Shown: positions 4,505 to 49,318, numbered from the stretch's first letter. The stretch is DNA of 64,000 nt from Dehalococcoidia bacterium (GCA_965211635.1 OZ242948.1:99730-163729), one strand, 5' to 3'. Numbers and translations: made by a program. The notes: generated from the letters alone by a model not told the origin.

Positions 4505-4573
4505 CGCCAGGCCACACGTACCCGTTCTGTTCTCCCCCGGCGCAAGGAGACCTTCGCGCAGTCCTCTCACTCC

Positions 4574-4624
4574 CTCTCCCCCCGCGCAAGCGGGGGGAGA
4601 TGCCGAAGGCAGAGGGGGGCTCCC
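4574..4624 (+). repeat. REP/RPE-like structured repeat, copy 1 (core)
   Basis: ctctccccccGCGCAAGCggggggagATGCCGAAGGCAGaggggggctcc. C6/G6 hairpin, a small GCC-GAA-GGC hairpin, then a G-run. Lies between convergent ruvA and the VOC gene. Confidence 0.85.
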
Positions 4625-4719
4625 GCGCTCGAACTTACCTCCATCCCGCCGACCACCTGATGCCAAGCCAGGCCGGATCCCTCCCCAATCCCCAGGTCGG
4701 ATGGCCTCGTCGGCCTTCA

Positions 4720-5103
4720 CTACGTCTGCATGATCTGGATCAGGTTGCCGCAGGTGTCGTCGAAGACCGCAATAGTGACATCGCCCATCGCTGTCGGCTC
4801 CATCACGAAAGCGACGCCCAGCGACTTCAGCTTCTCGTGCTCTGCGTGGATGTCCGTAACGCCAAAGGAGGTCGCTGGGATGCCCTGATCAAACAACCCT
4901 TTCTGGTATGCCTGCGCTACCGGGTTTTCGTTCGGTTCGAGCAGCAGCTCGGTCCCATCTGGGTCATCGGGCGAGACGACGGTCAACCACTTGAACTCCC
5001 CCGCAGGGACTTCTTGCTGCTTCACGAATCCCAGGATCTCTGTGTAGAACCTCAGAGCGTCGTCCTGATCGCCTACGAACACGCCGGTGTGGGTAATGCG
5101 CAT
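4720..5103 (-). CDS. VOC/glyoxalase-bleomycin resistance family protein
   Basis: MRITHTGVFVGDQDDALRFYTEILGF… is a glyoxalase-fold N-terminus. The ORF extends to 5157, but the MRITH start (5103) avoids overlap with arsR. Confidence 0.6.
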   Translation of the reverse strand: MRITHTGVFVGDQDDALRFYTEILGFVKQQEVPAGEFKWLTVVSPDDPDGTELLLEPNENPVAQAYQKGLFDQGIPATSFGVTDIHAEHEKLKSLGVAFVMEPTAMGDVTIAVFDDTCGNLIQIMQT

Positions 5104-7887: not shown

Positions 7888-8727
7888 GTGGCAGCAGGTA
7901 GCGGACCGGAACGCTGGCAACAGGCGAACGTCGACGCGCCGCCGTCGTGGTTGGGCGGTCGCTCGGAGCAGGAGGAAGCGCGCGCCTGCGCGTTCTGCGG
8001 AGAGGTGCCGCCCCCTGCGTCTTCGTTTTGTCCTAACTGCGGACGCGCCGTGACCGCTGCGCTGTTGCCCCAGCAGGGTGAATCGCTGACCGTTCTCTTC
8101 ACCGACATCGAAGACTCCACCAATCTCACCGAGCGCCTGGGCGATCTGCAATGGGAACAGATCATCGATCTGCACAACGAAATCGTTCGCGAGGAGTTGC
8201 ACCGCCATGCCGGATTCGAGGTCAAGCTGACCGGCGATGGTTTCCTGATCGCCTTCGCAGACGGTATGAATGCGCTCCGCTGCGCCGCCCGCGTGCAGGA
8301 TCAGGTCACCCAGTTTTCCGCCTTGCGGGGAGCAAACTGGCCGGTTTCAGTGCGCATGGGCGTGCACCGAGGCGATGTCATCCTCCGCCCTGGCGGCGAC
8401 ATCCTCGGTCGCACCGTCAACATGGCGGCACGGATCATGGCCAAGGGGCGTGGTGGATCGATCGTCGTATCCCAGGCGCTGCGCGACGATGTCGAGCGCT
8501 TCATCGGCGATGAACTCTGGGTCAATATGGGAGCCCGTCGGATTCGCGGACTCGAGCGGCGCGAGCGCATGTATCTGTTCCGCTGGCCCGAGTTCCTCGA
8601 GTTCGAAGAGGATCAAGGTCGGCCGCGGCCCCAGCGAATTTCCCTGGCCGACGAGTCCTTCGAAGCGGAATCGGATTCGATCTCTGCCCTTGTCAGCGAA
8701 CCTGAGACCGCCGCAATCGACGCGTAG
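7888..8727 (+). CDS. Class III adenylate/guanylate cyclase with N-terminal Cys4 zinc ribbon
   Basis: CAFCGE…CPNCG zinc ribbon. Followed by a CHD core: …LTVLFTDIEDSTNLTERLGD…KLTGDGFLIAF…RMGVHRGDV…. GTG start. Confidence 0.7.
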   Translation: MAAGSGPERWQQANVDAPPSWLGGRSEQEEARACAFCGEVPPPASSFCPNCGRAVTAALLPQQGESLTVLFTDIEDSTNLTERLGDLQWEQIIDLHNEIVREELHRHAGFEVKLTGDGFLIAFADGMNALRCAARVQDQVTQFSALRGANWPVSVRMGVHRGDVILRPGGDILGRTVNMAARIMAKGRGGSIVVSQALRDDVERFIGDELWVNMGARRIRGLERRERMYLFRWPEFLEFEEDQGRPRPQRISLADESFEAESDSISALVSEPETAAIDA

Positions 8728-8851
8728 TTCCGTTTGGAGAGCTGCCCGCAAGTCGCCATGAGTCGGCCCCGCGCCGGCGTGGCCTTCCGGCGCCTATCGA
8801 GCCGCGGATCCTTAGCCCACGGAGAACCCCCTGCGTACGCCTCCGCTTCCT

Positions 8852-8990
8852 CTCTCCCCCGCGAAGCGGGGGGAGATGCCGAAGGCAGAGGGGGTCCGGC
8901 TCGGAGGGAACCCGCGGCTTCCCCCCCAGTCCACCCAATCGAGTCGGGGTTTGGCTATACGGCGCAGGTTCCCCCCGAGGGGGAAGCGGG
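8852..8990 (+). repeat. REP/RPE-like repeat, copy 2 (core 8852-8888 plus extended tail with a C-run/G-run hairpin)
   Basis: Core: ctctcccccGCGAAGCggggggagATGCCGAAGGCAGagggggtcc. Tail contains gcttccccccc … ggttccccccgagggggaagcgg. Lies between convergent cyclase and ftsK. Confidence 0.8.
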
Positions 8991-9051
8991 TGTTCGCAAC
9001 GGTCTCCTTGCGTGGGGACGTCATCGTCACGGGACCACCCGCAGGTCTCCG

Positions 9052-11685
9052 CTACGAGTTCGCCAACACGCGGCGCGAGCGTCCGCCATCCGAGGACTCG
9101 ATCACCCCCGTCTGTTCGAGCTGCTCGATCAACCGCTCGGCCCGCGGCCGACCAATCCGCATGCGACGCTGCAGCAACATCGCCGACACGCGTTCGTACT
9201 CTCGAGCCAACTCCGTGGCCTCGCCCAGCCGCGAGTCCATAGCCTCCTCGCGTCCCACTTCCATAGGGGAGTCGCCACGCGATATCGTTCCCTCACTCCC
9301 CCCTGAAAGGGGGGAGCTGTCGCGAAGCGACTGAGGGGGGTCCGCCTCCACGACGATGTCCGACACCTGCTCGGATCCCTCAGCCTCAAGCGCTGCCTCC
9401 AGTGTCGTCGTCAATGTCCGCAGGTCGGCTTGCGCAGCGCGCGCTTCCGACTCCGCCGCTGCCGAGGACTCATCCGAGAGCTCTTCCAGCATCACGTCAA
9501 GTGATGTGCGGTCGGTCGCCGACTGTGTCGGGGCTGTCCAGGCCTCGAGGATTCGCTCGATCTCGGCGTCGGAGACGAACGCCCCCTGCACGCGTCGTGG
9601 CTTGATCGAGTCCGAGGACATGTACAGCATGTCGCCGCGTCCCATCAGCTTCTCCGCGCCCGCCCGATCCATGATCACCCGCGCATCGGTCTGCGACGTC
9701 GTCGCGAACGCGATCCGCGTAGGGAAGTTTGCCTTGATCAGACCGGTGACGACGTCAACCGACGGTCGCTGGGTCGCCACCACGAGGTGAATGCCCACCG
9801 CGCGGGCCAGTTGCGCCAGTCGCACCAACTGGCTCTCGACCTCGGCCGCTGCGGCCATCATCATGTCCGCCAGTTCGTCCAGGACCACGACCCAGTAGGG
9901 CATTCGCTTCTCGACGTGGTCCAGTTCGTTGAAGGCGACAATGTTTCGAGCCTTGTTGCTCTCGAGCTGTCTGTAGCGTCGCTCCATCTCGGCTACCACG
10001 ACGCCAAGCACCGAGACTACCTCGTCCGACTCGGTCACCACGTGCGAGAAGGCCAGGTGCGGCGCGCTGCCGTAGTTGGTGAGTTCGACCCGCTTGGGGT
10101 CAACGAGGATCAGCCGCACTTCCTCAGGTGACTTCTGCATCAGCAGAGAAGAGATGATCGTGTTGATGCAGACCGACTTGCCCGATCCGGTCGCACCCGC
10201 GATCAACACATGTGGCATCCGCGTCAGGTCGGCGATCACCGGGTTGCCGCGTACGTCGCGGCCCAGCGCGATCGGCAATCCCACCTGCTGCGCGGCATGG
10301 GCGAACTCCTCCGACTCGATCAAGCCTCGCAGGGCCACGATCCGCGTGTCGGCGTTGGGCACCTCGACGCCGACTATTGGCTGCCCCGGCACCGGGGCTT
10401 CGATCCGAATCGAAGGCGCCGACAGGGCCAGCGCCAGGTCGTCCGACAGTCGCGTAATCCGGTTGACCCGTACTCGGGTTCGAGAGACCTCCTCCATTTG
10501 CATCATGGGGCGCTTGTGCTGATCCAAGAGCGGCGCGCCGGTCTCATCTCTCACTGCAACCTGCCGCGTCTTGATCTCCCAGCCTGGCTCGACTCCGAAC
10601 TGCGTGATTGCCGGCCCCTCGTTGATCTGCGTCACGCTCGCGTCAACGCCGAACGAGGCCAAAGTCTCGACAATGATCTGGGCCTGTTTCTCCGCCCCGG
10701 TGCGAAGCGTGACTGCCGGATCGTCATCCAACAGGTCGATAGACGGCAACCGCCAGCCGTCGCTCGCCGTGCGGTCGAGCGTGCGCAGTGCGGTCGGAGG
10801 CTTCTTTCGCTCTGCGGTTTCGGGCGACGTTGGTTGTCCGGCTCTCGCCTGCGCCTCTGTCAACGGCGGCCAGGTCTCTTCGGCGCTTTGCGTCGGCAAG
10901 GCCGCCGACGCCGATCGGCGGTCTGTGGCTGTCGGCTGGAGAGGCGGCGCCTCCTGAGTCGGCGCGCCGAGCATGTCGGGATCGTCGTGGCTTGTGCGGA
11001 GCACGCGAAGCGCATCCCAGATCTCGCGGCCGAGCCAGACGACCAGCAGCCCGAGTTGGCGCAGCGACCACAGGATCCCAGCCCAGAACCATCGCCCAAT
11101 CGAGGCAAGAGCCAACGGGCCTCTCTCGCGAATCTCTCGCCCCAAACGTCTGACCCAATCATCAAGCCTCTGCCGAGCAGCGATCAGCATCCGTCTCGCC
11201 AGGCCGGGCGCGACCAGCGCAAACGACAAGGCCAGGCCGAACAAGATGAAGAGCCAGCCGACTGGCGAGTCCAGCCATCCTCCGACCTGTCCACCTGCGC
11301 CGTACTGCGCGAGGGGCACGCCACCGAGCGATGCGTCAACCGAGATCGCGCCCGCGACGCCCCAGACCGCGATCAAGCCGAGGCCGATGCCAATGCTTCG
11401 AGCGATCAGTCGTCGATCCTTAAACAGGGCCTGTCGCACGCGCTTCCAGCCGACTGCCGCTCCCGCCACCGCGAAAGCGAATGCAAGTAGATACGCGCCG
11501 CCGCCCAACCACTGCACGACCGACTCGCGCTGATCCTGCAGCGGCAGCGAAGCTACCGTCACCCACGTCGCCGCCAGGACGGCGAATCCAATCAGCAACG
11601 CCCCCAGGACCTTGCGCCGATGCGTCGCCAGCCAGAGAGAAATGCGGTCAGGTAGCGCCTGACGGTTTGCCCTGCGTCTCGCCAT
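9052..11685 (-). CDS. ftsK: DNA translocase FtsK
   Basis: N-terminal TM segments. Motor domain …LIAGATGSGKSVCINTII…DELADMMM…. C-terminal gamma wHTH (…RMRIGRPRAERLIEQLEQTGVI…). Confidence 0.9.
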   Translation of the reverse strand: MARRRANRQALPDRISLWLATHRRKVLGALLIGFAVLAATWVTVASLPLQDQRESVVQWLGGGAYLLAFAFAVAGAAVGWKRVRQALFKDRRLIARSIGIGLGLIAVWGVAGAISVDASLGGVPLAQYGAGGQVGGWLDSPVGWLFILFGLALSFALVAPGLARRMLIAARQRLDDWVRRLGREIRERGPLALASIGRWFWAGILWSLRQLGLLVVWLGREIWDALRVLRTSHDDPDMLGAPTQEAPPLQPTATDRRSASAALPTQSAEETWPPLTEAQARAGQPTSPETAERKKPPTALRTLDRTASDGWRLPSIDLLDDDPAVTLRTGAEKQAQIIVETLASFGVDASVTQINEGPAITQFGVEPGWEIKTRQVAVRDETGAPLLDQHKRPMMQMEEVSRTRVRVNRITRLSDDLALALSAPSIRIEAPVPGQPIVGVEVPNADTRIVALRGLIESEEFAHAAQQVGLPIALGRDVRGNPVIADLTRMPHVLIAGATGSGKSVCINTIISSLLMQKSPEEVRLILVDPKRVELTNYGSAPHLAFSHVVTESDEVVSVLGVVVAEMERRYRQLESNKARNIVAFNELDHVEKRMPYWVVVLDELADMMMAAAAEVESQLVRLAQLARAVGIHLVVATQRPSVDVVTGLIKANFPTRIAFATTSQTDARVIMDRAGAEKLMGRGDMLYMSSDSIKPRRVQGAFVSDAEIERILEAWTAPTQSATDRTSLDVMLEELSDESSAAAESEARAAQADLRTLTTTLEAALEAEGSEQVSDIVVEADPPQSLRDSSPLSGGSEGTISRGDSPMEVGREEAMDSRLGEATELAREYERVSAMLLQRRMRIGRPRAERLIEQLEQTGVIESSDGGRSRRVLANS
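9293..9343 (+). repeat. REP/RPE-like repeat variant embedded in-frame in the ftsK linker
   Basis: ctcactccccccTGAAAggggggagCTGTCGCGAAGCGACTGaggggggtcc. Same three-part architecture as the core, with different loops and a compensatory second stem. Confidence 0.7.
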
Positions 11686-14159: not shown

Positions 14160-14274
14160 CCGAGTCCCCCTCTCCCCCGCTCTGCGGGGGAGATGTCCCG
14201 TAGGGACAGAGGGGGCTCCGGCGCCAATGTAGGCGCGGGCCCCTTCACCCACTACGCGGGAGCTTCCCCCAAGG
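14160..14274 (+). repeat. REP/RPE-like repeat, copy 4 (covariant core 14160-14209 plus tail hairpin 14252-14274)
   Basis: ctctcccccGCTCTGCgggggagATGTCCCGTAGGGACAGagggggctcc. Loop 1 is altered. Stem 2 is changed compensatorily (GCC/GGC to GTCCC/GGGAC). Tail: gcttcccccaaggggggaagcgg. Confidence 0.8.
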
Positions 14275-14292
14275 GGGGAAGCGGCACTGAAC

Positions 14293-27224: not shown

Positions 27225-28049
27225 ATGGCCGATCCCGATCTCCTGCCGCCCGATCAACGCCTGGACATCGACCGCGTCCGCGCGTTGCTCACGACTTCCG
27301 AGGTTGGACGCAGTCTTCACTATCTCGTCCAGACGACCTCGACCATGGACGACGCCCGACGACTCGCCAACGAAGGCGCGCCGCACGGCGCCGTCGTCCT
27401 GGCCGACGAACAGACCGCCGGCCGCGGAACCAAGGGACGCATCTGGGTCTCGCCGCCCGGTGAGAGCATCCACGCCACGATCATCGTCCGCCCCGACATC
27501 GAGCAGCTCAAGCGGCTCAGCATCATCAGCCCGGTCGCCACGACCGACGCCGTCCTGGCGACAACTTCTCTGCGACCAACGATCAAGTGGCCCAACGACA
27601 TCCAGATCGAGTCACGCAAGCTGGGGGGCATCCTGATCGAAGCCGAGTGGGGCGATGGTCAGCCCCGCTACGCGCTGGTTGGGATCGGACTCAACATCAA
27701 CTTCGACCCCGCGCCCTGGGCAACGCAGATCGACCGTCCCGCCACCAGCCTGATGATCGAGCTGGGTCAGCGCCAGCAGCGCGAACCGGTCCTCGCCGCG
27801 CTGATCAACGCAATCGAGCGTCGCCTCTTGGAAGCCGCTTCGGCGGAGCTGCATCGAACCTGGAAATCAAGGCTCGACACGCTCGACAAGCCAGTCACGA
27901 TCAGCTCGCCAGGCGGTGGTGAGTTTCATGGAGTCGCCGTTGACGTTGACGAGGCAGGAGCGCTCATCGTGCGAGCAGACCACGGCGAGCGCCGGACATT
28001 CATCGCTGGCGAAGTCACGCTCCGGGAAACGACTCAATCGGAGTCGTGA
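27225..28049 (+). CDS. birA: Biotin--[acetyl-CoA-carboxylase] ligase (group I, no DNA-binding domain)
   Basis: …ADEQTAGRGTKGRIWVSPPG… and …KWPNDIQI… are BPL catalytic motifs. Confidence 0.85.
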   Translation: MADPDLLPPDQRLDIDRVRALLTTSEVGRSLHYLVQTTSTMDDARRLANEGAPHGAVVLADEQTAGRGTKGRIWVSPPGESIHATIIVRPDIEQLKRLSIISPVATTDAVLATTSLRPTIKWPNDIQIESRKLGGILIEAEWGDGQPRYALVGIGLNINFDPAPWATQIDRPATSLMIELGQRQQREPVLAALINAIERRLLEAASAELHRTWKSRLDTLDKPVTISSPGGGEFHGVAVDVDEAGALIVRADHGERRTFIAGEVTLRETTQSES

Positions 28050-31000
28050 GCGCCGGCCCTGTTCGTTCGAGAAGCAGGGCAGGCGCAGTCACTCGTCCGT
28101 CCCAGGGCAGCAGCGACCATGTTCCGTCGATCAGATCGAGCACGCAGCCACCAACGAGCGGCACCGCTTCCCGGCCCCCGACGAATGCCTGCATCCTTTC
28201 GGCCAAAGGAACTCCATCCGGATCGGTCCAATCGAGCAACCACGCCTTTACCCGTTGCGCCTTGGCGTTCCAACAGTCAGTCGGCGTGGAGTCGATGCGC
28301 CTCAGCATCTGATCCGCGTTGGTCAACCGCCGAAACGCGATGTGTACGGGTTCCACGTCCAATAGCGACGCATCTACCGTTAAGGTCGTACCGCCGCGTA
28401 CTACGGTCGTCTCGCCTAGTCCGCCTTCTGCAACGAACCGCATGCCGGCGCTTGCAGCGAACTCCCTGGCCAGCTCGCGCTCGAACTTTGTTTCACCGCC
28501 CATCGAACGCATGCGGGCATCGTCAATCTTCGCATCGACAGATCGAGGCCGACCGGTCGCATTGCCGGCCCAGATCTCGAATGCGGCCAGCGGCAAGCCC
28601 GAGGTATCCCTCACCGAACCGTTCGCGCCCGGTTCGTAACTGACCCGCACGGCGTCCAATGATGTGATCCGTTCAGACAGCGTCGCGGTCAGTTCGTACT
28701 CGGACCACGACATCGTGGCGACCGCAATGGTCCGCAAACCGGCGACCACCTTGAAGTCGCTTGGGAGCGCTTCGGCTCCACTGACCTGCTGATCGAATAC
28801 TGCTGTGATTGTGAAGGAATCGGCGGTTATCGACTCAACTCTCGGCGGCGTCTCTGTCAGGTTGCTGACCAGGAACACGCTGTCGGGCACTCTCGCTCCC
28901 GTCAGGCCGGAGATGCCGCCGCGCGAACCGGCGAGGTAGACGACACCGAACAGGTCCGGCTCGTCCGGCAAGGAGTCCGCCAGGATCAACGTCACCGCGG
29001 CTCCGCCAATCGAAACAGACTCCACATCCGTTGATAGCCCTCCCCCGACAATCTGGAATCTTGATGCTGCAATGCTCGTTGCCGACAAGGGCTGGTCGAA
29101 CCGGAGCACCACAAGTGTGCCGAAGGCATACGCGTTCTCGAGCGTCGGCGCGGCCGTCTCGTCGATCACATCGGTCTCGAACGGGGCCACGGTCAGGCCA
29201 TCGCCGGTCAGGGACTCACCGAAGTAGCTCAGGCGACGATCCTGGCCCGCGCGCAAGCCGGGCGGTGACATCTGCAGCTCCAACTCAGAGCCCTCGACCC
29301 GCTTGACCGACTCCACCACAGCCTCCCCGCTGATCGCAAATTCGGATGCCAGAGGGAGCGACTCGTCAAGCCGTGAGTCGAAGCCGACGCTCAGCCGAAC
29401 CTGGTCCGCGTGAGCGCTCAGCGCGCATGGAGCCGCCGCAGCGATCAACCGATTCAATGCCAGACGAGCCGCATCCTCCGCGCCGGAGTAGCGCAGCTCG
29501 ACAAAGTCGCCCGAGCAGATTGCCACGCCGGGCCGCAGCTCGACGGATTCGAGGGCCTCGATCACGGAGAATGGTCGCTGTTCTCCGTTGACAATCAGCT
29601 CCCATGAGTGATCTGGCCGGTCGGGCGAGCCAATCTCGTCATCGAACGTCAGAACCACTCCACCCACGTCCGAGCCAATACAGCGCAGCGCCCACTCTCG
29701 GTCGATAAAGTTGGTGACGCCAAGAGAAAATGACCCAACCCCGCGATTCCTCGCGTCGTACAGTTGCGTACGACTGGAGTCGTACTCGACGAGCACTTCG
29801 ACGCATTCGGGCGCAGCATCTTCAAGCCGGATGGTGAGCAAGTCAGCCATCGCCGAAGCCGACTTGACCGATGCGGCTACACCATCGACCGACACGTTCA
29901 GATCTGAGTGGTCGACCGACGCCAGCGCCAGCAGCGGGCCGTCAAAGCCAACCACGACCAAGTCGGGGGTCGTACGATCAATCGAGGCCGTCACCGCGCG
30001 TGCTGCGGTCAGATTCGAGACGTCCGCTTCGATGAACCCGTCGACCGTGTTGCCTGTCTCGTCCTCGAGGTTGAATCGGCCGTCTTCAATGGACTGGCCG
30101 ACGTACTCCAAGCGAACGGGCTCATCCGGCTGTAAGCGACGTGCAAGAGTCAGTGTCAACGTGTCGGACTCGAGCGCGATGTCCTCTATGCCAATCTCGC
30201 TTGCCGACTGACCAAAGACAGAGAACCAGACCAGGTCTGCGTTGTCGTCACACTCGAAGTCCTCGATCTCGCTCTCCAGGGTTTCGCACTTCGGAGGTGG
30301 TAACTGAGCGGGGTTCAGCGGTTGGTCGAAGGTGATCGTGATTAAGTCATCCCTGGCAACGATGTTCTCCACTTGCGGAGCCACATCGACGCTGTTCGTT
30401 ACTGCTTGGCTGAACGAGACCACCTGATTGCCTGCATCGTCGTCCTGCAGGCCACCTGAGTCCGGCGCGGAGTAGCTCAGTGTGATGTCCCAGCTCTCGC
30501 GAATCGGAGTCGTGGAACCGATCGTGAGCACCATCCTGTACTCGCCGTCCGTCTCCAAGGTGCGGACAACCGGATCGATGTCAGTTTCTGGCTCGGTGCT
30601 GAACCAGGACGGGTCGATAGACACGGGGGCCAGTACGCGCTGGTCAAACAGGACGGTGATGCTCTGCCCGTCGGCGTCGGTGTGTGCGCTGAGCGGGTAC
30701 GGCGCATAGTCGGTCAGGTTCTCCACAGCCAAGTCTTCGAATCCAAGCGCTCGCGTGCTGTTCACACCGAGCAGGGCGTCGGACTCAGGCGGCGAGTAGC
30801 TCAGCGAAAGCTCGTCGTTGTCTTCGACAACTGACTCATCCAGTGTCAACTGCAGGGTCTGCTGCTCAACTGCTATCGACCTAACGGCGGCGGCTGTACC
30901 GACCAGTTCAAATGCTGCCGACTCCGGAAGAGCGGCTGCGTCCAGTTCACCGTCGAAGATGACTTCCAGGACTCGACCATCGACACTGGCCGACTGTGCG

Positions 31001-34000
31001 CTCGCGGGCGTCACGTTGCGCAGCGGAAACGCGTTGATCTGCGCACGTTGTTGGCCCGGATCGTCGTCCCGGATTCTGATCGTTCCGAACGTAGGGAAGT
31101 ACGTGATCGAAATCTCGTCAGCGGCCGCGACGCGATCTGTCAGGCTGACCACAATCTTGCCGACTCCATCTGGCCCATCGGCGAACACGTGAACTTGTCT
31201 GATCCCGATACCAGTTCCGTCGAGCGTGAAGTGCTCGACTGGAAACGCCAGAGGATTTCCCTCCTCGTCTCGAAAGCGTGGGTCGGCAAAGATCTCCTGG
31301 TCAAGGATGACCACGATCTCGTCGCCGTCGATCGTCCCGGATGCCGGAATCGGCGGCGTGTCTGTCTGATTGTCAATGTCTGTGGTGAAGGACTCCGATT
31401 GATTACCTGTGAGATCGACCACGCCGCCTTGATCGGGTCGCGAGTACGTCAACGTGACCGACTCGTCCTCGGTCAGCGATTGGGACAGCGTCAACGTCAA
31501 TGTCTGACCATCGATTGAGTACGCCGTGACTGTCCTTGGGTCATCGTTGCTCAACGCGAACGACGCGAGCGAGACTGCCGCTTCGCCGTCCAGCGACTGG
31601 TCAAAGGTGAGGATCACGACCGCACCGTTGCCGACAGCGGTCGTCAGCTCCGCAGCGGTATCGGTGTTGTTGGTCAGCGACTCCGAGAAGGACGCGACCG
31701 CTTCATCGTCCAAAGTCCTGAGCGGCGTTTCTGACGGTCGCGTGTACGTCAACGTGTACTCGGCGCCCTCTTTCAGCGGAGTCGCCAGGGTGAGGCTCAA
31801 GGACATCGAGTTCACTACCACATCTTTGACCGTCGGTCCGTCCACACCAAGCGAGAACGCCGATGCAGCCGGCGTCGAATTGGTGTTCAACTCCTTCGAG
31901 AATGCGATCAGCACCTGCGATCCGTCACCGTCAACCGAACGGATCAGCGGCTCCGGGGTCCGGTTGTCCACCTCGAACCCGCCGAACGCAGCGACCTCGA
32001 GCGTTGTGCCTTGTCGCTTCAGTCTCGGTGTGTCCTCGGCCGAGTAGGAAACAGTGACCTGGTCTACAAATGCAAGCGGGGCGGCGAGTGTCAGCCTCAC
32101 ACTCGCCCCGTCGATCGAGACCGCGCTCACCGAGTGTCCTGCCGGCGTGACGCTGAAGTCGGCCATCGCGGGGACAGAGGATTGGTCCAGGGCGCGGTCG
32201 AACTCAAGCGTGACTACAGCCCCATTGGCCAACGCGCCGAGCGGACGAGGCACGCCGTCTGCCCTGTTGTCCACCGACTGGCTCGACCAGGCCGGACTCT
32301 TCCACGTGGCGTCGGCGCTCTGAAGCGCCGGGTCAGTCTCGGCGCCGGGCGACTTGTAGCCGATGGTCGCTGTCTCATTCAGATCGGCGGCCGGATCGAG
32401 GCTCAGCAACACGGTCGAGCCGCTTATCGAGACAGTCGCAACAGCCGCCGATGTCGTGCCGCCCAGCTCAAACGCCGACTTCGCAGGCGTGCCCGCCTCT
32501 GTGTCCAGTAGCGGCCCGGTCATGTGGATCGTCAACAGGCGGCCAGTGGCGTCGATTGAAGCCGAGTGGAACACGGGCGTCGGGTCCACGGTCAGGTTGT
32601 CGACTGTAAGCGACGCGAAACTGTCCACCTTGATCTCCTGCCCCGCACGCTTGAGCGCCGACTCGGTTGGCTGGGTGTAGGCAAGGACCAGTGTGTCCAG
32701 GTGGGTGACCGCAGCACTGAGCGTCAACGTCACTTCTTGTCCCGCTATCGACACGCCGGCGACTTCTGTAGAGCTCAAGCTCAGGCTGAACGCGGAAGCG
32801 GCCGGCGAAGACGAACCATCCAGTACCCGATCAAAACCCACGACCAGTACAGAGCCGTCAACGGTAGCCGAGCGAGGACGCGGCTTGCCGTCGGCATTGT
32901 TGGTCACGCTCTTCGACATGAACGCCTTGACCGCCTGCAAGTGGGCCAGAGAATGCAGTCGCGCCGCCGAAGAGTCAGTCGGCGGGGAGTAGTCGACCGT
33001 GATGGTCTCGCCAACGTCGGCCATTGGATCCAGGGATAGCGACACGCTCGACCCGCTGACGGCGACCGAATCGACCGCTGCGCTACCACCCGCGAGGGAG
33101 AACGTCGAAGCATCGGGCGTGTGCTCCTCGGACTCATCGAGAGCAAGCGAGAACGTGATGGTCAGCGTTGCGCCGTCTGCAGAAATCGAAGCGCTCTCAA
33201 ACTCCGGAGCCGGTGCGACGGTGTTGTTGGTCACCGGTTGATTCGTGAACGAAGCCGCGTCCAGGTTGTTGCGCGCTTCAATCCGAGGAGGGGCGTTCGG
33301 CTTCGAGTAGCTGATGGTGATGACCGCTCCGGCCGCCACTGCTTCGGAGAGCGTCAGGGTGACCGACTCATCGCTGAACGAGGACTCGGCGACCGTTACT
33401 CCCGACGCCCCGCCGATCGAGAACGCAGTTGCGGGCGCGACATTCTTGAGCGGCAAGTCGAACTCCACCGTCAGCGTGTCGTCGTTCACACGAGCTTCCG
33501 TGACTTCGGGCTTCTTCGTTGGCGTCTTGCTCTTGAACTGAAACCCGTAGACGTCTGCCACATTGTGTCCGCCGTCGAGCTGACGCAATGGGGACTCGTT
33601 CGGTTCGGTGTAATCGATTGTGTAGTTCGTCTCTCCGCCGGCGAGGATGCCGTTCAAGGTGAGCGAGACGGTGTCGCCGGAAATCTCTACTTTCGTGATC
33701 TCGCGTCCCTCAATCGAGAACGCGTCCCGTTCCGGAACGCTGTCTTCATCCAGCGCTTCCGAGAACACCAGGGTGACGATCTCGTACAGCGCCGACGCCG
33801 ATTGGAGCGTAGGCGGACTATCGACGATGTTGGTCACCGACCGTGCCGACCAGCTCTGCACGTGCTTGCCGCCCTGATCGAGATCCTGGAGCGGATAGTT
33901 TTCGTCGCCCAGCGCCTGGTCGTAGGCAAGCGTGACACTCTGGCCTTCGACCACTGACCGGCTCAGTTGGATGTCAAGTCGCTGGGGCGCGTCTGACGGG

Positions 34001-34575
34001 CGTATCAGGTCGGAGATGTCGGCGTCGTTGTCATCAACTTCGATGTCGAATGCCGAGAAGTCGGACCACTGGAAGCTGATGTCGCGGATCGGCTCGCAGA
34101 AGGTGACTTGTATGAAGCGGCCATCAGCGTCAGTCTCGACCGACGTGATCTCCGGCGCCGCGTCCGTGACGTTGTCGACGCTCTGGTCATCGAATGATTC
34201 GACTGCTCCCCCGCTCACTCCGACTAACGACGAAGCGCTGGGAATGTAGCTGACGCTGACGCTGCGGTCCGTACAGTCGATGTCCGCAATAGCATCTTCC
34301 AGGGTCAGACTTATCACGGCGCCGTCGATTGAGGCTGAGTCGACCGTCTGCGTCTCGTCGCCCAGCTTGACCGTGAAGTCTGCGGCGACGGCTGTGCTCG
34401 TTGCGGTCAGGTCTTCAGAAAGCGTAATCGTAAGTGTTGACCCATCGACCTGCGCCGCGCTCACCGCTGGAGGGCTCTGGGAAGCGGCGCGGCTGGCAAT
34501 CAGTGCTACTGCGATTGCCAATAGCGAGGCGGCGACGAGGGTCGCAAGCGATCCACTTCGACTCGCCCAGGGCAT
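28015..34575 (-). CDS. Giant (2186 aa) secreted/cell-surface protein with ~17 tandem ~100-aa Ig-like repeats and a unique ~170-aa C-terminal domain
   Basis: N-terminal signal peptide. Repeats follow the pattern SASIDGxxLTITFSxxLD…AFSL…VxSVxVSGxxVxLxL…TVxYxxP…LxDxxGNxxxSFxxQxVTNNT. Convergent 35-nt overlap with birA. GC is slightly below the flanks. Confidence 0.8.
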   Translation of the reverse strand: MPWASRSGSLATLVAASLLAIAVALIASRAASQSPPAVSAAQVDGSTLTITLSEDLTATSTAVAADFTVKLGDETQTVDSASIDGAVISLTLEDAIADIDCTDRSVSVSYIPSASSLVGVSGGAVESFDDQSVDNVTDAAPEITSVETDADGRFIQVTFCEPIRDISFQWSDFSAFDIEVDDNDADISDLIRPSDAPQRLDIQLSRSVVEGQSVTLAYDQALGDENYPLQDLDQGGKHVQSWSARSVTNIVDSPPTLQSASALYEIVTLVFSEALDEDSVPERDAFSIEGREITKVEISGDTVSLTLNGILAGGETNYTIDYTEPNESPLRQLDGGHNVADVYGFQFKSKTPTKKPEVTEARVNDDTLTVEFDLPLKNVAPATAFSIGGASGVTVAESSFSDESVTLTLSEAVAAGAVITISYSKPNAPPRIEARNNLDAASFTNQPVTNNTVAPAPEFESASISADGATLTITFSLALDESEEHTPDASTFSLAGGSAAVDSVAVSGSSVSLSLDPMADVGETITVDYSPPTDSSAARLHSLAHLQAVKAFMSKSVTNNADGKPRPRSATVDGSVLVVGFDRVLDGSSSPAASAFSLSLSSTEVAGVSIAGQEVTLTLSAAVTHLDTLVLAYTQPTESALKRAGQEIKVDSFASLTVDNLTVDPTPVFHSASIDATGRLLTIHMTGPLLDTEAGTPAKSAFELGGTTSAAVATVSISGSTVLLSLDPAADLNETATIGYKSPGAETDPALQSADATWKSPAWSSQSVDNRADGVPRPLGALANGAVVTLEFDRALDQSSVPAMADFSVTPAGHSVSAVSIDGASVRLTLAAPLAFVDQVTVSYSAEDTPRLKRQGTTLEVAAFGGFEVDNRTPEPLIRSVDGDGSQVLIAFSKELNTNSTPAASAFSLGVDGPTVKDVVVNSMSLSLTLATPLKEGAEYTLTYTRPSETPLRTLDDEAVASFSESLTNNTDTAAELTTAVGNGAVVILTFDQSLDGEAAVSLASFALSNDDPRTVTAYSIDGQTLTLTLSQSLTEDESVTLTYSRPDQGGVVDLTGNQSESFTTDIDNQTDTPPIPASGTIDGDEIVVILDQEIFADPRFRDEEGNPLAFPVEHFTLDGTGIGIRQVHVFADGPDGVGKIVVSLTDRVAAADEISITYFPTFGTIRIRDDDPGQQRAQINAFPLRNVTPASAQSASVDGRVLEVIFDGELDAAALPESAAFELVGTAAAVRSIAVEQQTLQLTLDESVVEDNDELSLSYSPPESDALLGVNSTRALGFEDLAVENLTDYAPYPLSAHTDADGQSITVLFDQRVLAPVSIDPSWFSTEPETDIDPVVRTLETDGEYRMVLTIGSTTPIRESWDITLSYSAPDSGGLQDDDAGNQVVSFSQAVTNSVDVAPQVENIVARDDLITITFDQPLNPAQLPPPKCETLESEIEDFECDDNADLVWFSVFGQSASEIGIEDIALESDTLTLTLARRLQPDEPVRLEYVGQSIEDGRFNLEDETGNTVDGFIEADVSNLTAARAVTASIDRTTPDLVVVGFDGPLLALASVDHSDLNVSVDGVAASVKSASAMADLLTIRLEDAAPECVEVLVEYDSSRTQLYDARNRGVGSFSLGVTNFIDREWALRCIGSDVGGVVLTFDDEIGSPDRPDHSWELIVNGEQRPFSVIEALESVELRPGVAICSGDFVELRYSGAEDAARLALNRLIAAAAPCALSAHADQVRLSVGFDSRLDESLPLASEFAISGEAVVESVKRVEGSELELQMSPPGLRAGQDRRLSYFGESLTGDGLTVAPFETDVIDETAAPTLENAYAFGTLVVLRFDQPLSATSIAASRFQIVGGGLSTDVESVSIGGAAVTLILADSLPDEPDLFGVVYLAGSRGGISGLTGARVPDSVFLVSNLTETPPRVESITADSFTITAVFDQQVSGAEALPSDFKVVAGLRTIAVATMSWSEYELTATLSERITSLDAVRVSYEPGANGSVRDTSGLPLAAFEIWAGNATGRPRSVDAKIDDARMRSMGGETKFERELAREFAASAGMRFVAEGGLGETTVVRGGTTLTVDASLLDVEPVHIAFRRLTNADQMLRRIDSTPTDCWNAKAQRVKAWLLDWTDPDGVPLAERMQAFVGGREAVPLVGGCVLDLIDGTWSLLPWDGRVTAPALLLERTGPALTTPIESFPGA

Positions 34576-45774: not shown

Positions 45775-45810
45775 CTTTCCAGTCCCTGCTTCCCGCAGAG
45801 TTCTGTTCCC

Positions 45811-45859
45811 CTCTCCCCCCGCGAAGCGGGGGGAGATGCCGAAGGCAGAGGGGGGCTCC
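45811..45859 (+). repeat. REP/RPE-like repeat, copy 8 (canonical core)
   Basis: ctctccccccgcgaagcggggggagatgccgaaggcagaggggggctcc. Confidence 0.85.
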
Positions 45860-45928
45860 CCGCCCAACTTCACAGCGTCGGTTACCGTTGCCATCGAATC
45901 GCATTGAAGAGTTAGTGAAAGCGTCGTC

Positions 45929-47383: not shown

Positions 47384-47395
47384 GACTGCGGTTCC

Positions 47396-47445
47396 CTTCT
47401 CCCCCCGCGAAGCGGGGGGAGATGCCGAAGGCAGAGGGGGGCACC
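47396..47445 (+). repeat. REP/RPE-like repeat, copy 9 (canonical core)
   Basis: cttctccccccgcgaagcggggggagatgccgaaggcagaggggggcacc, immediately after the sodN stop. Confidence 0.85.
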
Positions 47446-47470
47446 CGCCATTCTGACGGAGTAACTCCCG

Positions 47471-49318
47471 CTAGGAGCCTGCGGCCATGGCGAAGTCGGC
47501 GGGCGAGTCGTCATACTCCTCGACCGGTGCACCGGCGGAGAAGGCGGCGTCATCTCGAGATATCTGCTTACCCATCGCTCGCTCTATCAGATTGAGCAAC
47601 CGTTCCGCTCTGAGGGAGAAGAATTGCCAAAAGTCGTCGTCGCGCAGGGGCTCTTCACCAATGAGATGAGAGCGGAGCACTGCAGAGAGCCGCTCCGGTG
47701 CAATCTCCTCTTCCAGCCTGATTAGGTACGCGGAAGGCGCGCGGCCGCCGATCATGCGATTGGTGTGCGCGGAGATCGCGGTCTTGTTGATGATGCTGTT
47801 GTACTTCGCAGGAGGAATCGGCGGCTTGCTCTCGTTGCACCACTTCTGTGGGAATACGTGGTGGATATCGACCGACTCCTCGTCGACCACTTGAAAGACG
47901 AGCGGCTCGGCAGTTCTAAAGTCGAGCGAACCCTCTCGCATAAGCAGCGCGTGAATGCCCTTGTATGCCGCGCTGTTTCGAGTTCGCAGTGTGAGCAACC
48001 GATTGGCCTGAAATCCAGCGTCCCGAATCGTTGAAGGCTCGCCGCCTTGTGAACGAATCCAGTTGACCACCTCCACCAAATCGCGAGCAAAGGTCGATTC
48101 GACGGCACTTCCGTACATCTCCCCAAGCACCCCGCACCAGTACCACTTGGCGATGTTCTGTTGGACAGAGTCAGCAGAGGCGTGGTGTCCTAAGTCAGCA
48201 AAGATCGCAGCCAGAGGGACGAGCTGTGTCTGATAGGGAACGTCTTGCGACTTGAAGACGTGCTGCCGCCGCAGAAACCGCGCAGCTTCTATGAACCCGT
48301 TCTCAATGGCGTCGGCCCATCTCTTGTACTCAGCCAGCGATAGCTGCAGAATCTCGCGTCTCCGACAACCAACCGCAGGTTGCCGTTCCGCGCCTGGGTT
48401 TTGGCTGACCGCTCTGCGGCGACGCTCTAGTGTCGCCAACAGCGTCACTGCTTGGAGGAACTGATCACCTTGGACGCTGGCAAGAATGCCGAACTTCTCT
48501 CTCATCCGGTCCCGCCGTTGTTCCCAGTTCTCTCGAAGCTGGAAACTGTCAGCCGCGAATGATGCCGTGACGAGCTCGAACACCGTTAGCGTCACGCCAC
48601 CTGTATTGACCTTCTCAAACACGAGGCAGACCGCTTCCTTGGTCGTGCTCTTTGCCATTTGAATCACTGGGACCTGGTACTTTTTGAAGCGCTCGATCAC
48701 CTCGGCCTCGAAGCGGTCATAGAGATCGACCAATTCATCTGCATGTTTGTGATACCTGTTGAACTCCCTGCGCCAACTGGCAGCGTCGAATATCTGATCG
48801 AGCGGGAACAGAGCTTGCTCGTACTCTTGCTCTGGCGTTGAGAGGTCAAGTTCTATGTCTCGAAGTCGCCGGATCTGTCGATCGGCTGGTACGCCGAAGA
48901 TCCATTCGTCCCTCTCTCCTTCATCGCTCAGCGCAAGATTCATGTCGATGTAGTAGTGCCTGTGCAGGATTTTTCCCCGAGTGTCGCGCGTCCGGACCGG
49001 AGACTTAGTGAAGAGAGCCTGATACAGCGAGGTCAACCGCTGTTGGCCATCGAGCAACAGCGTGTCAGGAACAGGAGGGTCGTCAAGGCTGGCACCTTCA
49101 ATCACCCGCGGCTTGAAGGCAACGTCGCCGCCATTCTCCAAGGTCATGATCGCATTGATCGGGAATGAGACGGAGATACTAGCGATCAAGCTACGAATTC
49201 GCTCGTCGTCCCAGACCCACGGGCGCTGAAAGTCCGGTAGCTGCAATGAACCCTCATTGACAGCCTTGAGCAAATCGGCGAGTCGCACCTCGTTAGTTGT
49301 GAAATCGGCTCCAAGCAC
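47471..49318 (-). CDS. DUF262 (ParB-like NTPase) + DUF1524 (His-Me finger nuclease) protein: GmrSD-type type IV restriction / SspE-like defense nuclease
   Basis: N-terminal …LPDFQRPWVWDDERIRSLIASI…FPINAIM… (DUF262 DGQQR-type: …LLDGQQRLTSL…). C-terminal …HHVFPQKW… (DUF1524). Segment GC ~56%. Confidence 0.8.
   Translation of the reverse strand: MLGADFTTNEVRLADLLKAVNEGSLQLPDFQRPWVWDDERIRSLIASISVSFPINAIMTLENGGDVAFKPRVIEGASLDDPPVPDTLLLDGQQRLTSLYQALFTKSPVRTRDTRGKILHRHYYIDMNLALSDEGERDEWIFGVPADRQIRRLRDIELDLSTPEQEYEQALFPLDQIFDAASWRREFNRYHKHADELVDLYDRFEAEVIERFKKYQVPVIQMAKSTTKEAVCLVFEKVNTGGVTLTVFELVTASFAADSFQLRENWEQRRDRMREKFGILASVQGDQFLQAVTLLATLERRRRAVSQNPGAERQPAVGCRRREILQLSLAEYKRWADAIENGFIEAARFLRRQHVFKSQDVPYQTQLVPLAAIFADLGHHASADSVQQNIAKWYWCGVLGEMYGSAVESTFARDLVEVVNWIRSQGGEPSTIRDAGFQANRLLTLRTRNSAAYKGIHALLMREGSLDFRTAEPLVFQVVDEESVDIHHVFPQKWCNESKPPIPPAKYNSIINKTAISAHTNRMIGGRAPSAYLIRLEEEIAPERLSAVLRSHLIGEEPLRDDDFWQFFSLRAERLLNLIERAMGKQISRDDAAFSAGAPVEEYDDSPADFAMAAGS

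Follow-up and report, generated by a model that had tools for sequence, protein, structure and literature searches.

An in-frame copy of a G+C-rich hairpin repeat in the FtsK linker of a Dehalococcoidia bacterium, probably an old insertion

Can a short G+C-rich segment that is read in frame inside ftsK, the gene of an essential DNA translocase, be a copy of a repeat that also lies between genes, and if so, when did it enter the gene and what keeps it there? The question is raised by a 64,000-nucleotide stretch of DNA from a Dehalococcoidia bacterium (GCA_965211635.1, OZ242948.1:99730-163729; here called the window), in which an earlier note, made from the sequence alone, had described a segment between the motor and gamma domains of FtsK as a divergent copy of a dispersed intergenic element. 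[quoted passage not shown]

The ftsK segment as a copy of the intergenic repeat

The repeat family of the window (consensus TTCCCTCTCCCCCCGCGAAGCGGGGGGAGATGCCGAAGGCAGAGGGGGGCTCCC; 7 to 8 intergenic-type copies in the repeat listing) folds, in each copy, as a three-way junction, in which an outer stem, P1, encloses two hairpins, P2 and P3. P1 is CCCTCT/AGAGGG (general form CCCTCN/NGAGGG), P2 is CTCCCCCC-loop-GGGGGGAG, and P3 is a variable stem of 4-6 bp with a GNA loop, TGCC-GAA-GGCA in the family form and TGTCCC-GTA-GGGACA in the copy at 14161. Counting the one in ftsK, the 64-kb window holds about nine copies, seven of them intergenic by the covariance model described below. The copy in ftsK and its host gene comprise the following features.

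9052-11685, minus strand: ftsK coding sequence, 877 amino acids, host gene of the repeat copy (open reading frame listing and Pfam)
9241-9540, minus strand: linker between motor and gamma domain, residues 716-815 (Pfam limits, indel-rich orthologue alignment, AlphaFold2)
9061-9240, minus strand: FtsK gamma domain, residues 816-875 (PF09397, E=3e-14), lying downstream of the repeat copy with its sequence intact and its frame kept
9286-9346, plus strand (antisense to ftsK): full repeat unit, codons 780-800 (covariance model, 33.2 bits)
9290-9295, plus strand: 5' arm of P1, CCCTCA, pairing with 9332-9337 (minimum-free-energy fold)
9296-9316, plus strand: P2 hairpin, CTCCCCCC-TGAAA-GGGGGGAG (fold, pair counts)
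9319-9331, plus strand: P3 hairpin, GTCGC-GAA-GCGAC, with a GNA triloop (fold, compensatory changes)
9332-9337, plus strand: 3' arm of P1, TGAGGG (fold, pair counts)
9247-9291, plus strand: degenerate partial unit adjoining the full unit and adding about 15 codons (G799-E813); the window and the related loci L005 and L081 have it, short-form orthologues lack it

The string quoted in the earlier note is real and ends at 9343 as given, but it starts at 9292 rather than 9293, a slip of one base, and the full unit is the longer interval 9286-9346.

A search with the pattern CCCCC-N3-12-GGGGGAG-N8-25-AGGGGG returned eight plus-strand loci, the ftsK one included, plus one overlapping reverse-strand match, and nothing in 100 shuffles. 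Since this pattern had been devised after the ftsK copy was known, and is therefore a weaker test, we turned to a covariance model of intergenic copies. In MAFFT alignments, the copies at 14161 and 4566 fell out of register, so the model was made from five canonical copies of equal length, leaving out both the ftsK copy and the 14161 variant, and it was run unfiltered on both strands (128 kb in total). It scored the ftsK segment on the plus strand at 33.2 bits (E=7.9e-6). Six canonical copies and one composite copy scored 57-90 bits and the 14161 variant 34.9 bits, whereas the best match apart from copies and their reverse strands reached 16.7 bits.

The minimum-free-energy fold of the ftsK copy has the same topology as the folds of the copies at 45803 and 14161. 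It deviates from the canonical form in its short P2 loop and its long P3, GTCGC-GAA-GCGAC, both of which occur in intergenic copies of relatives (L085:1234 and L007:14505). The junction around P3 departs from the family: it reads GAG-CTG...CTG-AGG in the ftsK copies of all lineages versus GAG-ATG...CAG-AGG in the intergenic copies, and the ftsK copies make up a distinct subtype, the C-type, which is also found outside genes in metagenomes. The earlier note had proposed a likeness over the full three-part architecture, to be given up if it came down to generic GC-rich runs; the model score, the common fold and the matches of P3 and P2 loop in relatives bear the proposal out.

That the segment is a chance product of G+C-rich, low-complexity coding sequence seems vanishingly improbable. 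The genome has a G+C content of about 64%, the fold is hardly better than those of shuffled controls (z about -2), and the substrings CCCCCCTGAAAGGGGGG and CTGTCGCGAAGCGACTG of the ftsK copy are unique in the window by exact and 3-mismatch searches and hence uninformative alone; yet no unrelated match exceeds 17 bits in the 128 kb scanned, the pattern is missing from all shuffles, P3 is identical to that of a relative's intergenic copy, and the same subtype is widespread in metagenomes. The 45-nt stretch beside the full unit looks like a degenerate tandem partial unit because it aligns collinearly to it, with a local alignment value of 11 versus 6.7 +/- 1.3 for shuffled sequence (17 of 2000 shuffles as high); it is not significant with the covariance model.

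Position of the copy in the FtsK protein

Pfam recognizes FtsK_alpha, FtsK_SpoIIIE (455-643) and FtsK_gamma (816-875) in the protein, and an identical protein (100%; P0001) is encoded on a 3.1-Mb contig. The open reading frame and the Pfam matches agree with the earlier note in placing the repeat copy, read in frame, in the linker between motor and gamma domain, about two-thirds along this stretch of about 100 residues. The repeat core corresponds to residues D782-E798, DPPQSLRDSSPLSGGSE, a Pro-, Ser- and Gly-rich stretch of about 17 residues, and leaves both the motor and the gamma domain intact. No extra Pfam domain was found in the linker. An intein or intron was considered and rejected, the insert being only 51-96 nt long and no splicing domain being among the Pfam matches in the linker.

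The linker had been taken for about 100 residues of low complexity. This holds for its variable tail but not for its whole length, since residues 729-768 (window 9397-9516) form a conserved predicted helix (predicted local distance difference test [pLDDT] about 60-80; AlphaFold2, DSSP). The helix motif LDxxLEELSxESxxAxxExEARAAQADLRxLTxTLExAL is present in 52 of the 52 orthologues examined, and because of this only the final 40 or so linker residues are truly variable. Residues 771-812 are predicted as coil with pLDDT below 50 (AlphaFold2 on a 42-sequence alignment), the gamma domain is predicted confidently (pLDDT 92-94), and the insert with its partial unit (residues 782-813) would lie wholly inside the predicted coil. 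Indels among orthologues fall exactly here, which together with the predicted coil agrees with the suggestion that FtsK tolerates variable linkers at this site. Such a permissive site between linker helix and gamma domain could suit tagging.

The copy uses codons that are rare in the genes of the window, namely GGG (13% of Gly), CCT (12% of Pro), CTT (7% of Leu), TCA (5% of Ser) and AGT (2% of Ser), which supports a foreign origin.

Presence, decay and loss among orthologues

Comparison of FtsK linkers in related genomes, the check that the earlier note had suggested, showed that the insert is orthologous in at least eight lineages and lost or decayed in many others. The relatives are FtsK homologues with 60-75% identity from Dehalococcoidia/Chloroflexota metagenome-assembled genomes, some of them sponge-associated or marine, going by isolate and sample names. 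A scan of contigs yielded at least eight close relatives, the window's own genome not being among them, and at least eight related FtsK genes (64-75% identical), those of L001, L005 and L081-L086, have the element at the same codon. In the DNA of L001, L005, L081, L082, L084, L085 and L086 it is recognizable at that codon, with orientation, frame and C-type junction all in common; the flanks are similar, with extra residues just upstream in L084 and L086, and the window-derived covariance model finds five of these relatives' copies. The gene order RNase J, FtsK, cyclase, UvrB, RuvA is kept among the relatives.

When the C-terminal 250 residues of 52 homologues were aligned, indels separating bearers from nonbearers fell exactly at the insert site. 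Peptides resembling PPQSLRDSSPLEGGS occur in P0003, P0004, P0005, P0007, P0030 and P0047, decayed inserts in P0008, P0011, P0013 and P0038, and most other homologues have none. P0012 has two tandem partial units followed by a full unit, and L084 has two 39-nt partial units, which mirrors the half-unit array at 22695-22830 of the window. In P0028, sister of the bearer P0030, only PLQGGSE is left, as would be expected from a deletion between the two CCCCCCT direct repeats of the element, which are in frame and 30 nt apart. In a neighbor-joining tree computed with the linker excluded, bearers appear in at least six clades, interspersed among nonbearers. To judge from these orthologues, the ftsK insertion is neither recent nor private to the window genome, and the C-type junction shared by the ftsK copies argues for one old insertion followed by many losses.

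Alternatively, the element might have entered ftsK several times at a hot spot, or the 3' part of ftsK might have been exchanged laterally. We regard this as unlikely, though not negligible. The element is patchy on the FtsK tree and the window's nearest relatives lack it; P3 of L081, including its loop (GTCCC-GTA-GGGAC), equals an intergenic subtype; the window and L005 have a 55-nt perfect identity in an otherwise diverged gene; and in LepA proteins of Patescibacteria (see below) the same few sites have been occupied repeatedly. On the other side, the ftsK copies are alike in codon, orientation, frame, flanks and a C-type junction that is seen in no intergenic copy of these genomes, and intermediate decay states exist. 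Moreover, the adjacent 45-nt partial unit is normally diverged between the window and L005, which speaks against a recent transfer of the whole linker.

Conservation of sequence and pairing

Where the copy survives, its sequence and pairing are kept better than the surrounding synonymous sites. The FtsK proteins of the window and L005 are 73% identical, with 51.5% identity at third positions, and the longest perfect match in the 2.6-kb gene, 55 nt, covers the element and its flank; the next longest, 29 nt, lies at the Walker A motif. Over the 28 pairs formed by eight bearers, identity is 87% in the element versus 72% gene-wide, and where residues are identical, 328 of 399 third positions (82%) agree in the element versus 61% gene-wide. 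In nine ftsK copies, 92.4% of the pair cells hold standard pairs (P1, 90.7%; P2, 91.7%) versus 47-60% when the partners are slid. The P2 loop varies among orthologues (TGAAA, TTCCA, TTTCA, TGGAA), and six of the nine copies have an intact 8-bp P2 stem, mismatches being present in L001, L081 and L083.

P3 features two pairs changed on both sides. The change in L081, to GTCCC/GGGAC, is synonymous on both sides (TCG>TCC and CGC>CGG, still S...R), and that in L085, to GCCGC/GCGGC, alters both residues (S>P and D>G). Both fit pairing better than a peptide motif. For this and other reasons, it is very unlikely that the peptide PPQSLRDSSPLEGGS is itself conserved as a linker motif, with the likeness to the repeat being secondary. 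Eight lineages conserve the peptide well, while nearby linker residues vary; however, L085 replaces two of its residues and keeps the base pair, L081 swaps both synonymous bases, third positions are conserved beyond the background, the codons are rare, the region is predicted to be disordered, many orthologues lack the peptide, and the same DNA is noncoding elsewhere in the genome.

Origin and maintenance of the insert

The history that we propose begins with a single entry of the repeat into ftsK in an ancestor of the Dehalococcoidia/Chloroflexota clade, after which the insert would have been inherited vertically and then repeatedly lost, truncated (e.g., by deletion between the CCCCCCT direct repeats), left to decay, or expanded in frame into tandem partial units. 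Maintenance would act on the nucleic acid and not on the peptide. Candidate causes are selection for DNA or RNA structure, self-templated correction of the quasi-palindrome and short-patch gene conversion; self-templated correction of quasi-palindromes during replication is a known mutational process. These causes are not separable here, although in principle they could be, with the gene's own synonymous sites serving as a clock. As regards FtsK, a spacer predicted to be disordered most likely carries the insert as a neutral passenger.

Several points weigh against an old, single insertion with maintained pairing. The window's nearest FtsK relatives, P0002 and P0006, lack the element, and a single origin needs ten or more losses. 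Hot-spot insertion or recombination between lineages could have contributed, and the 55-nt match with L005 could reflect such recombination. Around the copies and in 120 metagenome loci (see below) we found neither a transposase nor a target-site duplication nor recent transposition, and several copies are positionally conserved, so that the element can be called mobile only by reason of its dispersal. The 28 pairs behind the identity values are not independent, and the excess conservation is partly selected for, because intact orthologues were recognized as such by being intact. The evidence from covariation is modest, since there are nine ftsK copies and 12 of 500 shuffles reach the observed value. 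Since the P3 of L081 equals a common subtype of the family, short-patch conversion explains it as well as compensatory mutation does. Finally, translation of the peptide is presumed from the open frame.

If this history is right, an essential DNA translocase can bear translated repeat DNA for a very long time, given that the bearers have diverged to 64-75% protein identity. The one insertion is then available as a natural series of intact, expanded, truncated, decayed and absent alleles, which could be used to measure how repeats are maintained and lost in genes.

Intergenic copies and a possible cis-acting role

The intergenic copies of the window are the following.

4566-4627, plus strand: canonical copy between ruvA and uvrB, with positional orthologues in L005 and L001
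8843-8903, plus strand: copy between the cyclase gene and the 3' end of ftsK (repeat listing and covariance model)
14161-14224, plus strand: variant between udg and tatC with the long P3 GTCCC-GTA-GGGAC; orthologous copies in L005 and L081
21329-21412, plus strand: composite copy, its P3 loop longer by 24 nt, upstream of the RNase P RNA gene
21885-21945, plus strand: canonical copy just downstream of the RNase P RNA gene (covariance model)
45803-45863, plus strand: canonical copy (fold and covariance model)
47389-47449, plus strand: canonical copy (covariance model)

All nine copies, including the one in ftsK, are oriented along the plus strand of the window whatever the direction of the neighboring genes, and relatives keep this relative orientation at their syntenic loci. 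The copies in ftsK and between udg and tatC are antisense to transcription. Intergenic copies are conserved in position across species between ruvA and uvrB, between udg and tatC and on both flanks of rnpB. GC skew is negative over 1-50 kb of the window; as a test of orientation against replication, we looked for dnaA or an origin near the turn of the skew at 50 kb and found none.

These regularities bear on the possibility that the ftsK copy is a functional cis-element under selection, either as an RNA structure (pausing, processing or stability) or as a single-stranded or cruciform DNA site bound by a host factor. Such a role could account for the conservation of synonymous sites above the gene background and the compensatory changes in P3, for the positional conservation of the intergenic copies between species whose synonymous sites are nearly saturated, for P3 loops that are always GNA on the same strand, and for the uniform orientation in the window and in syntenic loci. 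We nonetheless consider it decidedly unlikely. Many close orthologues lack the copy or have a decayed one, so the ftsK copy is dispensable; the fold z-score is only about -2; neither a promoter-like nor a T-tailed terminator-like site was found in a scan of 8700-9700; and the same element sits in many unrelated proteins, which argues against a role specific to ftsK. Nor is there an Rfam family to assign it to: with Rfam 15, only the RNase P RNA and one tRNA reach the gathering score in the window, with no match to the repeat, and in E-value mode the element-bearing stretches of the window and of 14 metagenome loci returned chance microRNA-like hairpins far below threshold.

The RNase P RNA (21440-21839) is bracketed by repeat copies, and the 24 nt added to the upstream one themselves form a hairpin; in L081, copies at 46-106 and 579-639 are spaced as if they bracketed the same gene. 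Solo mini-hairpins of the form TTCCCCC-loop-GGGGGAA, resembling a lone P2, lie near full copies at 8969-8989 and 14255-14284, the latter scoring 16.7 bits with the covariance model. The intergenic region between ruvA and uvrB is unusually long (about 1.1 kb). No less than 130 nt of it, downstream of the repeat copy (about 4627-4760), agree at around 90% between the window and L005, far more closely than the synonymous sites of the genes on either side do, and a small gene or RNA that has escaped annotation may lie here.

A second in-frame case in a Mur ligase gene

The earlier note counted ftsK as a second essential gene with an insertion of the family, and a Mur ligase gene indeed provides another case.

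22695-22860, plus strand (sense, in frame): three 36-nt half units and a full unit in the Mur ligase gene, inside the Mur_ligase_M domain

The open reading frame of this MurE-like protein spans 21764-23650, with a likely start Met at about 21962, and matches Mur_ligase_M/C in Pfam. The full unit at 22800-22860, a covariance match, is canonical in sequence but lies within the gene, and the half units come from the repeat listing. The array encodes IPLSPREAARPSLSLSLGEAARPSFSLSLGKAARPSFSLSPREAGGDAEGRGGLP. Relatives of the ligase are 513-563 residues long, compared with about 562 here.

The same architecture beyond the lineage

A scan of metagenomes with the pattern TCCCCC-N3-10-GGGGGAG-N-TG-N9-13-GAGGGGG found at least 120 stretches (L087-L206) with at least 151 copies. 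The copies listed come from soil, gut and seawater samples, on contigs of 33-72% G+C. In 133 of the 151 listed copies, versus 11% of shuffles, P3, whose pairing is not imposed by the pattern, pairs perfectly over 4 bp or more. Among the listed copies there are 21 distinct P3 arm sequences with loops that are mostly GNA or GGCA, and the bases preceding CTCCCCC and following GGGGGAG covary (T-A, 64; C-G, 59; G-C, 14). They also fall into three widespread junction subtypes (A, G and C), one of which is that of ftsK. Head-to-head dimers about 110 nt apart are frequent in A-type and G/C-type elements, whereas the window has none. Inverted A-type dimers of the form ATCTCCCCCC-TTGA-GGGGGGAGATG-hairpin-CAGAGGGGGG were found in 179 records at 1183 places and are abundant on plasmids of Rhizobium, Sinorhizobium, Shinella and Ensifer; A-type elements have about 29 ordered bases in common with the window consensus. 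Clustering of open reading frames over the 120 metagenome loci revealed no recurrent transposase beside the copies, only ABC transporters, short-chain dehydrogenases/reductases and solute-binding proteins.

In-frame copies also occur in Pfam-confirmed proteins elsewhere, namely MetRS, PolA, DnaE2, MnmE, LepA, CobN, Fmt and a C39-like peptidase (loci L090, L093, L103, L115, L183, L184, L186 and L101). Three of the sites are domain boundaries: between 5' nuclease and polymerase in PolA, between the GTPase domain and domain 2 in LepA, and between the N and C domains in Fmt. DnaE2 has two copies, one of which encodes PPQSLRASSPNGGAAS, and copies read in frame antisense have P-P/S-x-L/S-R/G-x-S-P-x-x-G-G in common. 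Spanning stop-to-stop frames on high-G+C contigs (L099, L131, L135, L158 and similar) were rejected as coding, giving junk translations, as were those of L138, L161 and L173, which have no Pfam match.

It is tempting to speculate that the ftsK copy is one of an undescribed superfamily of G5-6/C5-6 hairpin elements that crosses phyla, united by common origin or by common machinery that mobilizes or maintains them, and surviving in frame in linkers with active maintenance of pairing. We put this forward as a tentative possibility, more doubtful than probable. The architecture CTCCCCC-loop-GGGGGAG-N-TG-hairpin(GNA)-N-GAGGGGG extends over Chloroflexota, Rhizobiaceae, Patescibacteria-like and other low- and high-G+C contigs, and the machinery may act on single-stranded DNA, as suggested by the strand-specific GNA loops and the uniform orientation. 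Linker hosts would then include FtsK, the MurE-like ligase, PolA, DnaE2, MetRS, Fmt, LepA and MnmE, that is, proteins of replication, translation and the cell wall. Recurrence across phyla, often in frame at domain linkers, would point to a further mechanism of spread or maintenance.

The LepA copy belongs to a Nomurabacteria/Paceibacterota bacterium. Among close relatives, LepA proteins of Patescibacteria (P0121-P0240) range from 599 to 664 residues and have at least four polymorphic insertion sites, with short inserts rich in Pro, Gly and Ser such as PLAKGEV, KGTPPQQGGEDSSPPKLG and PSTSSGQA. This variation suggests repeated colonization by small GC-rich repeats.

Comparison with known repeats

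Translated palindromic repeats in essential genes are already known. Rickettsia palindromic elements (RPEs; Ogata et al. 2000, 2002) are about 100-150 bp long and, in the account of PMC10969869, are described from Rickettsia, an alphaproteobacterial genus. That account presents them as short palindromic repeats that lie in frame in unrelated, often essential genes, are translated at fold-compatible sites and also occur between genes, all of which recalls our element, and the copies in ftsK and the Mur ligase gene are likewise palindromic repeats in frame with the frame left open. Unlike RPEs, however, the element is about 50-60 nt long, extremely G+C-rich, folded as a three-way junction and found in Chloroflexota, and by this analogy the resemblance is one of behavior, not of membership.

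Intragenic REPs with GTAG or CGTC tags (Di Nocera et al. 2013, PMC3733652) are hairpins of 20-40 nt, mostly intergenic, whose single copies, dimers or groups encode short peptides; many occur as head-to-head dimers, and the CGTC REPs have no dedicated transposase (PMC3733652). Our element is similar in being a hairpin repeat that lies mostly between genes and is in some cases read in frame within them, but it consists of two hairpins with an outer stem, in contrast to the single hairpin of a REP. Inspection by eye of 24 copies from the clade and of the 151 listed metagenome copies gave no consistent GTAG/CGTC tag, and CTCCCCC, GGGGGAG and ftsK are absent from the supplementary tables of PMC3733652. 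The rhizobial RIMEs or Sm-repeats, which PMC2573895 and PMC2245857 cite, may offer a name for the A-type dimers; in rhizobia the copies form head-to-head dimers with a spacing of about 110 nt, whereas each window copy has its own C-rich 5' arm.

Nonautonomous repeats in frame within host genes also include QMITE1 of Coxiella, MITEs of Anabaena, intragenic ERIC and BOX, which form in-frame fusions or insertions in host open reading frames (PMC10969869). The ftsK copy resembles them in this respect. These repeats, however, possess terminal inverted repeats and, as a rule, target-site duplications that derive from known insertion sequences, and at the copy borders examined we saw neither such a duplication nor a parent insertion sequence. 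The P1 arms (6-9 nt) could pass as short terminal repeats, and divergence between empty and filled ftsK sites is too great for the borders to be defined. Literature searches by keyword, incomplete in coverage, returned nothing on this element, its spread across phyla or the copy in the FtsK linker. By analogy, the present case behaves like both RPEs and intragenic REPs and can be filed under neither; what goes beyond the ordinary is the long maintenance of a hairpin in coding DNA and the breadth across phyla with repeated in-frame occupation of linkers.

Neighboring genes of the window

A gene at 47471-49318, adjoining the repeat copy at 47389, encodes a restriction endonuclease of the GmrSD type. 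Elsewhere in the window, 28015-34575 encodes a protein of 2186 amino acids with seven SWM repeats and Big_5 domains.

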